From an uncultured delta proteobacterium (GTDB lineage Bacteria; Desulfobacterota; Zymogenia; Zymogenales; Zymogenaceae): DNA of 64,000 bases. The translations under genes and the position numbers were made by a program. Of this stretch, positions 20,447 through 22,882 are shown in pieces. The notes below the pieces were generated by a model, which worked only from the letters and a program-made list of their open reading frames with translations, ran no database searches and had not been told where the DNA came from. Position 1 is the stretch's first letter. Each line of letters opens with the position of its first letter. The stretch lies in NCBI GenBank assembly GCA_963735595.1, contig CAVTLK010000001.1, forward strand, positions 544,001 through 608,000, given 5' to 3'.

Positions 20447-21565
20447 TCATTTGATCTTCTTCTGATACACGCAAAATTTCTTGACGAGTTTCATATTCAG
20501 ATTGACGAGAGACTGGTTCATCTTATGGTTGTCCTGGCGAATCCAGCTTGCTTCGAGACGGGCGTTCTTCTTGGACAGGGCATGAAAGATATGGTAATAG
20601 AGAAGCGTGTCCAGGGCCTTGTTCTGGAATTCCTTAACCAGTCCCAGTCCCCATAACCGATACTCCCTGAGCTTTTTCACGCCGTATTTGATCTTAAAGA
20701 TCCCGAAGGGAAAGAGCCTTCCGTTGAGCCTCTTGATAATGACGTTAACGTCGGGCAGTGCGATGGCATACCCGATGGGTTTTCCCTCGCGCTCCATGAT
20801 GAAGACGCACTCGGGGTCGACGATGTCCTTGAAGTCCTTGACGATCATATCGACCTCCGATACGTCGGCGGGGATAAAGTTCCACTCGTTCTGGTTGGCG
20901 TCGTTTGCCACGGTGAGTATCGCCGTGACTTCTTCCGGGATCTTCTTGAGGTCTATCCCGCGAACGCGAACGTTATACCGCTCCACCAGATAGTTATAGT
21001 GCCTGGAGAAACGCTCGGGAAACACGTAGTGCTCCAGGATGTCCCCGTAGTAACCGTTCATCTCCATGTTTGGGACAAAACCGGCGTCTTTGGCCAGATC
21101 GCCGTAATAGGGGAAATTATACGGAGAAAGCACCGTATGCGCCTGGTCAAAGCCGGCTATGAGAAACCCGACGCTTTGTGAAGTGAAGTTGAAGGGGCCC
21201 CGTATGTTCTTCATCTCCCTTTCTTGCAGCCAGTCGGCGGCCGCCCCAAAGAGCGCTCGGGAGACTTCCCGCTCGTTTACCGATTCAAAGGAGCCGAAAA
21301 ATCCAAGCGGTTCGTGCCAGTAGTCTATGTAGCCGTGATGGACGAAAGCGGCAATTCTGCCCTTGACGGCTCCCCGCCTGCGCGCCAGGAAAAACGCGGC
21401 ATCGCAGTTTTTAAAAAAGCCGTTTTTCTTTCGGTTGAATTCTTGCGCCGCGAACAGCCTGAGAGGAGGAACCCAGACGGGATGGTTCTTATAGAGATCG
21501 TAGGGAAACCTGATAAAATGCGCGAGGTCCCGGCGGCCGGTGGCCTCAATAACATCAACGCCCAC
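20447..21565 (-). CDS. GNAT-fold protein (YghO-like)
   Basis: FPYDLYK..P.WVPPL, GRIAAF, GFFGSFES, RGPFN, PYNFPYY, LNGRLFPFG, EASWI. Confidence 0.8.
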   Translation of the reverse strand: MGVDVIEATGRRDLAHFIRFPYDLYKNHPVWVPPLRLFAAQEFNRKKNGFFKNCDAAFFLARRRGAVKGRIAAFVHHGYIDYWHEPLGFFGSFESVNEREVSRALFGAAADWLQEREMKNIRGPFNFTSQSVGFLIAGFDQAHTVLSPYNFPYYGDLAKDAGFVPNMEMNGYYGDILEHYVFPERFSRHYNYLVERYNVRVRGIDLKKIPEEVTAILTVANDANQNEWNFIPADVSEVDMIVKDFKDIVDPECVFIMEREGKPIGYAIALPDVNVIIKRLNGRLFPFGIFKIKYGVKKLREYRLWGLGLVKEFQNKALDTLLYYHIFHALSKKNARLEASWIRQDNHKMNQSLVNLNMKLVKKFCVYQKKIK

Positions 21566-21732
21566 TGTCGAACACCTCTTTTCGACGACGATAGCGCATG
21601 TTTGTCACAAATTGTATATACCATTGACCGATAGCATAAATCAAGGTTTTTTATGGCATCGTGCCGTCCGAATATCCATCCGGCGGTATCCGCGGCCGGC
21701 CGTCGTGTATGCGGGATAGTAGACTATTTTTA

Positions 21733-21760
21733 TTGACTTTTGTCGGTTCGATGCTATCCT
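21733..21760 (+). promoter_or_regulatory. Sigma70-type promoter upstream of the Cys-repeat peptide gene
   Basis: TTGACT-16 nt-TATCCT with a TGn extended -10. Confidence 0.5.
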
Positions 21761-21918
21761 ATACGTACATATATTACCGCCCTACCGGGAAACACACACG
21801 GCCGATACCCGATAGAAACCCGTTCCCGCAGGGCCTGTCTTTCGTATCTCCTCTCACGGACATCCTGTCTCTCGGGCAATCTAGTTATCTGACGTTAAAC
21901 AGGTAATGAGGCTTACGA

Positions 21919-22116
21919 GTGGATAAAAAGAAAAAATACGAGCCTCCCCAGATAATCGATCTAAATGTCGATTATACCCAGGCGACCGGGGCATCGAAAT
22001 GCTGGAACGGGGCCACACAAGCAGTCCAGTGCAGGCCCGGAAGCGGCGCAAGTTTACAATGCAGGAACGGTCCAAGGGCGGGAAACCAGTGTCGAACGGG
22101 GAACAGCGCGCAATAG
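21919..22116 (+). CDS. Small Cys-repeat peptide, putative RiPP precursor (radical-SAM-target type)
   Basis: GTG start with GAGG RBS. Leader KKKYEPPQIIDL; Cys at 28/38/48/58, each in C-x-x-G. Confidence 0.75.
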   Translation: MDKKKKYEPPQIIDLNVDYTQATGASKCWNGATQAVQCRPGSGASLQCRNGPRAGNQCRTGNSAQ

Positions 22117-22451
22117 TGACAGTCGGTTTAACGAATAGTATCGCTAATCTATACCGTAACTGTGCATTTTATTTGCGTTATTATATCGACCACGGGCGAT
22201 CCAAGTTAGGGACGGAGATCAACCTGAGGACGAAAATATATGTATCGTAGTGTACATGAATACCGTCTATCATCAATGATAGTTCCGAAGCACTCTATAA
22301 CTCAAAACTGAAGATCTATTATCTTTTGAAATATAACAACGAAGGATTAGAACCACTTAATCTATTAATATCCTTGGGTTTTCCAAAACAAGCAAGCCCC
22401 TTTACGCTGAACTATCAATCTGACGTATCCTAACTTGGCCTTCCGAACCGG

Positions 22452-22772
22452 CTAATTATCGTCCGCTTCCTCCTCGCCTGACCCATCTTCATCGACCCCC
22501 ACCCCCTCGGGGATCGTCCCCATGGGCTCGCCCACGGTGCACAGGATCGTACCGTCCGCCGTAGTCCCGGTGACAATCACGCTGTGCCACGTGTTTGTTT
22601 TGAGATTACGTACCGGATAGGCCAGGCCGTTTTCGATTATAACCGTCGAATATCCCGCTACCGCGTCACCTTTTTCGTCGACCAGGAGGGCCTGTTCCGG
22701 TGCGGCAACCGCCCCCATCGCCGAGAACAAGAAAAGGCCCCCAACATAAATGAGGATTAATAAGGATTTCAT
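22452..22772 (-). CDS. Small exported hypothetical protein
   Basis: GGAGG RBS, signal-peptide-like N-terminus (..AMGAVA-APE), acidic tail. Confidence 0.65.
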   Translation of the reverse strand: MKSLLILIYVGGLFLFSAMGAVAAPEQALLVDEKGDAVAGYSTVIIENGLAYPVRNLKTNTWHSVIVTGTTADGTILCTVGEPMGTIPEGVGVDEDGSGEEEADDN

Positions 22773-22882
22773 CTGCCCCTCCCTCACAACCGCCCGATAC
22801 CGCCCGGCGGTCGGCTGAAATGTTCAATTGTCGGTCGCTCCTGCCGGTAATATCATCGAAACGGCAAGGCCTGTTCAGGTAT

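Follow-up and report, generated by a model that had tools for sequence, protein, structure and literature searches.

The 64-kb window, by which we mean the whole stretch of DNA analyzed, lies on contig C1 of the source genome (G000) and holds a small gene, hereafter the orphan, whose 65-residue product consists of a predicted leader with a Y-x-x-P motif and a core of four C-x-x-G units (Table 1). The reading frame, its GTG start, its sequence and the positions of its cysteines were all re-read in the DNA and are as the initial annotation gave them. Among the 65,998 stop-to-stop frames of at least 30 aa in the genome just two carry four C-x-x-G units at exact 10-residue spacing: the orphan and a paralog on contig C2. 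The proposed repeat consensus, Q-C-R-x-G-x-x-A, describes three of the four units but not the first, which reads K-C-W-N-G. In the DNA the units are alike at 10/24 to 18/30 bases (42–60%), in keeping with their earlier description as degenerate. The leader may end after A22-T23-G24, a guess from its small-x-small pattern; the core is free of Asp or Glu acceptor residues.

Table 1. Features of the orphan precursor locus (positions in the window)
Feature	Position	Strand	Basis or remark
Sigma-70-type promoter-like site, extended -10, TTGACT-16-(TG)TATCCT	21733..21760	+	9/12; kept at 4/4 loci
Shine-Dalgarno-like GAGG, 7 bases 5′ of GTG	21908..21911	+	sequence reading; weakly conserved
Orphan ScmA-like precursor gene, 65 aa	21919..22116	+	GTG start; TIGR04252 24.5 bits (cut-off 35)
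Predicted leader, residues 1-24, with Y7-x-x-P10-x-I12 (21937-21954)	21919..21990	+	leader conservation
Core, four C-x-x-G units, Cys 28, 38, 48, 58	22000..22113	+	Gly at +3 of each Cys
Left neighbor, divergent GNAT-like gene	20447..21565	-	PF00583 at cut-off
Right neighbor, convergent 111-aa gene	22452..22787	-	no family match

In agreement with the initial annotation, Pfam scans of 62 reading frames of the window (58 plus four neighbors; overlapping frames of at least 100 aa number 149 in the window) turned up no radical SAM, SPASM or PqqD family, and genome-wide PqqD and SPASM searches placed none there either. An M23/LysM peptidase and two MFS transporters are present in the 64 kb, which had been described as holding no peptidase or exporter gene, but nothing ties them to the peptide. 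A radical SAM gene with a CxxxCxxC motif but no SPASM or PqqD match lies about 5 kb to the left of the window (G000:C1:537781-538782); we think it irrelevant. As to the immediate neighbors, the GNAT-like and 111-aa genes of a second genome, G002, are 320 bases apart with no peptide gene between them, and near the GNAT orthologs in G005 and G006 a search found none either. The GNAT-like gene is thus present without the peptide in three genomes. The flanking genes therefore mark an insertion site; they probably stand outside the peptide system.

Orthologs of the orphan occupy the same site in two genomes of the same genus (G001 and G003) and in a metagenome locus (L082), with identities of 68–86%. 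Between pairs of orthologs 56–81% of synonymous sites differ as against 10–21% of non-synonymous sites, and dN/dS is 0.05–0.24 in five of the six pairs, the sixth being saturated. The leader (dN/dS 0.03–0.06; four of six pairs unsaturated) is under stronger constraint than the core (0.11–0.26), in which none of the eight Cys and Gly positions has been lost from the four orthologs, seven of the eight showing synonymous codon changes. The orphan is a real gene under purifying selection. Its promoter-like element, which taken alone is within chance (three such sites found, 2.0 ± 1.5 in shuffled sequence), is present as claimed and is kept at all four orthologous loci: the -35 TTGA and the extended -10 TGCTAT are invariant while the remaining 5′ region diverges. 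The ribosome-binding site was also where it had been placed, and an Rfam search of positions 21560-22460 returned no matches. Three sequencing runs of the same study gave no contig on the stretch, an outcome that speaks neither for nor against expression of the orphan. In G000 and G003, but in neither G001 nor L082, a six-codon, out-of-frame reading frame (window 21906-21926) extends over the GTG start; it could tune translation of the orphan or be there by chance.

No Pfam family matches the orphan, and its only NCBIfam match is to TIGR04252 (ScmA) at a score under the curated cut-off. The C2 paralog scores 28.3 bits against this model; of three peptides adjoining ScmF genes that pass their own cut-off, two give no hit and one gives 14.9 bits. 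The model is narrow. Given its score the orphan is not filed as a TIGR04252 member; that it works like ScmA stands. Its build – a short peptide with a YxxP leader and a periodic Cys-x-x-Gly core – is that of precursors resident in SynChlorMet (SCM) cassettes, and whereas the C2 paralog is inside such a cassette the orphan is outside any. The best match to ScmA and the leader held in common with the cassette paralog bear out the initial annotation in reading the gene as a SynChlorMet-related RiPP-type precursor with an RRE-type leader. The suggestion of a possibly undescribed RiPP system falls, since cassette and precursor are already defined in NCBIfam (TIGR04248-TIGR04252), and ‘dispersed’ barely applies to a genome with two precursors, one in a cassette and the orphan. 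We found no publication on Scm enzyme chemistry in the literature searched, although subscription journals and supplements could hold Scm data; Scm terms are absent from the texts of PMC10288494 and PMC7470986. The claim that CxxG cores are typical substrates of radical SAM/SPASM enzymes is for this reason unestablished, and ranthipeptide or sactipeptide, as the initial annotation classed the product, is a putative label.

A profile search of 1.84 billion representative proteins returned 513 at E 0.001, of which the best 150 were examined; 13 of these, longer than 170 aa, were left out of the cysteine and leader counts. Long proteins at the top of the search proved to be unrelated low-complexity repeats and were dropped. 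Among the 137 best family peptides kept, 134 have a [YWF]xxP leader, 801 of 883 cysteines are followed by glycine in a C-x-x-G motif (91% conservation of Gly at +3), and 79 peptides have an odd number of cysteines. Gaps of 10 or 11 residues between cysteines are by far the most frequent (576), so that the 10-residue spacing, exact in the orphan as had been noted, is a family norm rather than a peculiarity of this peptide. Ser26, considered as a conserved phosphorylation site, was left as a weak candidate: Ser or Thr is there in 15 of 18 close sequences, but family-wide the position is not enriched. Ser or Thr stands two residues before the first cysteine in 32% of 134 family peptides against 23% at later cysteines, which defines no family-wide phosphorylation site. 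An Atlas search gave three unnamed clusters only, and none of five matches in a PDB sequence search with the peptide profile fell under E 0.05. AlphaFold2 predicted no folded core (mean pLDDT 49 from 18 sequences, and 52 for a longer family member from 119 sequences), which is weak evidence; a Foldseek search with the pLDDT-49 model gave no matches and is meaningless at that confidence.

Several members depart from the usual form. The precursor at L085:7857-8465, and that at L087, have two tandem YEPP leader motifs ahead of a long Cys-repeat core. In P0075 a ScmA-like leader and KCQPG repeats are fused to a C-terminal FlgD-Ig/secretion-tail domain; some family members may accordingly be exported or surface-linked, or the fusion could be a read-through artefact. 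One of two cassette precursors at L080 (1065-1487) has an in-frame TAG just past the leader, and at L081:11442-11624 a peptide of this type survives as a remnant that lacks the leader: precursor copies turn over quickly in the family.

The genome-wide paralog search that had been proposed found exactly one paralog, a peptide of 84 residues at C2:473422-473676 (tblastn E 1.8e-16); profile searches give no third copy. Nine of 11 other YxxP-like DNA matches were read and none is a precursor. Orphan and paralog have 20 of the first 28 residues in common, and 16 of the 19 from Y7 to A25. The paralog belongs to a SynChlorMet-type set (G000:C2:473422-478788) that also comprises two radical SAM/SPASM genes, a PqqD-like gene and ScmC: both kinds of gene to be sought genome-wide, RRE/PqqD and radical SAM/SPASM, are therefore in this genome and outside the window. 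The order is Wza, Wzc, Wzy-like, GT4, NTP_transf_5, tandem PqqD, ScmE-like, ScmF-like, ScmC-like, precursor, S24/S26-type peptidase and acyl-CoA ligase. Scores against the cassette models are under the cut-offs (ScmC 29.8 against 125, ScmD 54.7 against 100, ScmE 218 against 400, ScmF 355 against 400), and the ScmF cut-off is passed by none of the nine genomes of the host’s family that have a match. The ScmC-like identity was also returned by Atlas (score 0.97).

The tandem PqqD/RRE protein (C2:476909-477526) also matches ScmD, and the nearest solved relatives of its second RRE domain are TfuB1, PqqD, LppB (9X8Z) and TbiB1; TfuB1, TbiB1 and LppB are YxxP-binding RREs. According to the accessible text of PMC13381572, binding by LppB needs YxxP and an Asp of the RRE holds the leader Tyr. 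One Asp is invariant in all seven RREs that we compared and, judging from its spacing, may be the counterpart of that residue. The ScmF-like enzyme has a seven-Cys SPASM domain (Cys 252, 269, 313, 316, 322, 326 and 344) and the ScmE-like enzyme at least eight conserved cysteines. The cassette peptidase scores 43.9 bits against TIGR02228 (cut-off 51.85) and has Ser12, His50 and Asp69; the ScmC-like protein has His, Walker A and Asp-Asp motifs, with weak HprK-related scores of 16–17 bits. No ABC or MsbA-like exporter was found among the cassette reading frames scanned.

Elsewhere in the genome there is an RRE-fused radical SAM/SPASM gene (C2:677745-679109). It directly follows a gene for a 517-aa protein with an apparent Cys-Ala-repeat tail, which was read from the reading frame of the opposite strand, and the pair (C2:676191-679109; L093:6192-9110) is a candidate second peptide-modifying system. 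The remaining PqqD gene (C4:52045-52249) lies in a low-GC stretch, with its coding sequence divided between frames. The first 80 kb of that contig (G000:C4:1-80000; L092) have a GC content of 0.42–0.48 against about 0.57 further on, with genes that look Bacteroidota-like by eye; this may be a chimeric join, or else a large block of acquired DNA.

Zymogenia are described as fermentative anaerobes in the accessible part of 10.1101/2021.03.22.436540. Among 401 genomes of the phylum a match to the peptide was found in 32, an ScmF-like match in 33 and both in 24, where 2.6 would be expected, a figure inflated by kin that are not independent. Without the ten genomes of the host’s family 15 of 22 peptide-positive genomes are also ScmF-like (1.35 expected, with the same dependence among kin). 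Of the eight peptide-only genomes two have long leaderless repeats and one has three internal stops, and most others are fragmented or incomplete assemblies. Within the ten family genomes the orphan was found in three, while all ten have a sequence resembling a precursor next to ScmC- or peptidase-like genes.

Evidence of a different kind comes from G001 and G003, in what amounts to a natural knockout. The two assemblies are 89% and 91% complete, which means that a further precursor could have gone unassembled. The in-cassette precursor of G001 has decayed through a frameshift and a deletion, with the leader Tyr changed to Phe and the second Pro to Arg; that of G003 has a TAA in the leader and has lost most of the core. 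Over codons 2-28 the decayed copies differ from the four intact sequences at 9–15 residues, whereas intact sequences differ from one another at 2–6. In both genomes the only intact precursor found is the orphan, whether by a profile of 119 sequences, with every one of the 30 and 35 candidates scored, or by a triple-CxxG pattern. One match to this pattern on contig C69 of G001 was discarded, as it contains stops and runs antisense to a gene of 291 codons. The cassette genes are uninterrupted, six of six in G001 and four in G003; both radical SAM genes and the RRE are open in both genomes, and all ten ScmF cysteines are kept. Between G001 and G003 dN/dS is 0.16–0.25 for ScmE, ScmF, the RRE and the nucleotidyltransferase, constraint that could predate the loss of the precursor. 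In G003 ScmC is in three frames and the peptidase is without an ATG; the assembly is error-prone, also splitting Wza, Wzc, the TPP enzyme and the GNAT gene, and the cassette there may be decaying or mis-called. G001 is thus one clean case and G003 a weaker second. Decay of the in-cassette precursor beside maturases that remain open supports maturation of the orphan in trans.

Both of these cassettes (L036 in G001, L037 in G003) also differ from those of G000, G002 and G005 in lacking two genes: GT4, which there precedes the nucleotidyltransferase, and the acyl-CoA ligase that follows the peptidase. The two genes may serve the cassette-type precursor only. There are two core types, that of G000 and L082 and that of G001, G003, P0001 and P0002. 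Between G000 and G003 dS is 0.16–0.26 for Wzc, Wzy, the TPP enzyme and MglA as against 0.7–1.5 for the Scm genes (C2 cassette/L001 versus C4/L037), and 56% of the synonymous sites of the orphan differ (window 21919-22116 versus L008). By this comparison the Scm cassette and the orphan allele look to have been swapped by recombination. The peptide tree has low support (two of 15 inner branches starred) and does not place the parent copy of the orphan.

Taken together, these observations make it likely that the orphan is a substrate of the C2 cassette in trans. Such maturation, as the initial annotation envisaged, has in its favor the cassette maturases encoded elsewhere in the genome and the knockout pattern of G001 and G003; the processing itself we infer. 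The orphan would be transcribed from its own promoter and its YxxP leader captured by the tandem RRE, a step against which it counts that RREs can tell similar leaders apart (PMC13381572, accessible text). The ScmF-like enzyme would then close one Cys-to-carbon thioether ring per repeat. Thioether rings are proposed because the seven-Cys SPASM pattern of this enzyme matches that of a thioether-forming enzyme: in CrpC three cysteines of the SPASM domain ligate the first auxiliary cluster, so that one of its irons would be open to a cysteine of the substrate (PMC13692751, in the portion available), and the ScmF-like domain would likewise keep one auxiliary iron available to a thiol of the peptide. 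By this analogy, and granting that the orphan is a substrate of the cassette, the case for rings and the case against appear to us evenly balanced. A four-residue ring joining each Cys to the near-invariant Gly at +3 is possible, a guess made because that Gly is so well conserved. The ScmE-like enzyme would perform a second radical step of unspecified kind, and the S26-type peptidase would cut off the leader with help from the RRE, like LppS in LPP clusters, where leader cleavage by a SpI-like enzyme depends on the RRE according to the same portion of PMC13381572. ScmC and the nucleotidyltransferase may add a phosphate and a nucleotide or sugar.

Four other readings were weighed. The orphan might be an unmodified mini-protein, its cysteines serving for metal or disulfides and its leader a relic of origin from a cassette precursor: the strict periodicity could serve a repeat fold, and four cysteines could bind one metal. 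We consider this improbable, for the leader is more constrained than the core, more than half of the best family peptides have an odd cysteine count, the family tracks ScmF across genomes and (weak evidence) no folded core is predicted. Nor does it seem probable that the peptide is processed otherwise, either by the RRE-fused radical SAM/SPASM enzyme at C2:677745-679109 or by the Scm cassette without Cys thioethers, for example by phosphorylation only as in LPPs. The genome does have this second RRE-bearing radical SAM gene, and the cassette has peptidase, RRE, kinase-like and nucleotidyltransferase genes in common with LPP clusters, whose shown modification in the accessible text of PMC13381572 is serine phosphorylation. 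However, the second enzyme directly follows a protein that has a Cys-Ala-repeat tail of its own, the remaining PqqD gene, at C4:52045, is broken, and phosphorylation alone would not explain why the great majority of family cysteines are in Cys-x-x-Gly. A decoy or regulator, whose leader titrates the RRE while the core stays unprocessed, would suit a gene that has its own promoter, stands at a site of its own and conserves its leader much better than its core; it is nevertheless very unlikely, given that the eight Cys/Gly positions have all survived synonymous codon changes and that G001 and G003 were found to have no other intact precursor to regulate. The last reading has the orphan as a leftover duplicate that is being lost. 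In its favor are the decay seen in G001 and G003, the in-frame TAG that one copy has in G009, the remnant of G008 and the empty site of G002. This reading is largely refuted and merits next to no credence, since at four of four loci the open frame, the promoter and the Cys/Gly pattern have stayed intact despite 56–81% synonymous difference.

With the orphan as a probable substrate of the C2 cassette, a broader proposal can be put forward, tentatively and as one that we rate as possible rather than probable. SynChlorMet cassettes would constitute an undescribed RiPP class that joins an LPP-like chassis (RRE, S26 leader peptidase, kinase and nucleotidyltransferase) to two radical SAM enzymes closing small Cys-to-Gly thioether rings; in this genus the role of substrate would have passed to a separately regulated, allele-swapping orphan, the sole surviving substrate in two species.

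Of known systems SynChlorMet is the closest. The orphan is matched best by ScmA, the C2 radical SAM genes by ScmE and ScmF, the ScmC-like gene by ScmC and the PqqD gene by ScmD, all under cut-off, and peptides beside ScmF genes over the cut-off have the same leader and CxxG build. The differences are that the orphan is on another contig, at least about 0.9 Mb from the cassette if both contigs are one chromosome, that the C2 RRE is a fused tandem, and that the C2 cassette, with an acyl-CoA ligase among its genes, stands at the end of an exopolysaccharide operon. The orphan system is accordingly a variant of a database-defined RiPP system. Of the 401 genomes sampled, 33 have an ScmF-like gene, yet we found no publication on SynChlorMet chemistry; as a short four-cysteine candidate substrate, the orphan makes the function of ScmE and ScmF testable with a minimal gene set.

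LPP clusters, so far as the accessible text of PMC13381572 describes them, share with the locus and its cassette a YxxP leader, a discrete RRE, an archaeal-type signal-peptidase-like leader peptidase, a kinase-like gene, an NTP transferase and a polysaccharide locus. They differ in coming from Bacillota and in having an MsbA-like exporter, and that text makes no mention of radical SAM enzymes. Their leader consensus, YxxPxVLxHQxIxFETxxS, goes with a Ser acceptor, whereas the orphan shares YxxPx-hydrophobic only and its family has no general Ser acceptor. CrpA and CrpC of Methanococcus voltae (PMC13692751, in part) resemble the present system in repeated Cys motifs after a leader and in the seven-Cys SPASM layout, found in CrpC as in the ScmF-like enzyme, but CrpA has 17-residue C-x-x-Q/D repeats and the RRE is fused to the enzyme. 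For unnested four-residue thioether rings there is precedent in type 2 sactipeptides such as streptosactin (PMC9389541, in part). In these sources CrpA and the sactipeptide substrates, unlike the orphan, have their genes next to those of the modifying enzymes.

Precursor genes scattered away from their maturase are already known from the prochlorosins, ProcA and ProcM (PMC10783134, in the part available), although these involve lanthipeptide chemistry, a Nif11 leader and dozens of precursors, as opposed to two precursors and a radical SAM cassette in G000. To such systems the present locus adds a natural knockout and the LPP-like chassis of a SynChlorMet-type cassette, and with them comparative-genetic evidence that SynChlorMet-type cassettes serve far-encoded precursors; a mining tool confined to the surroundings of the enzymes would, in G001 and G003, pick the pseudogene.
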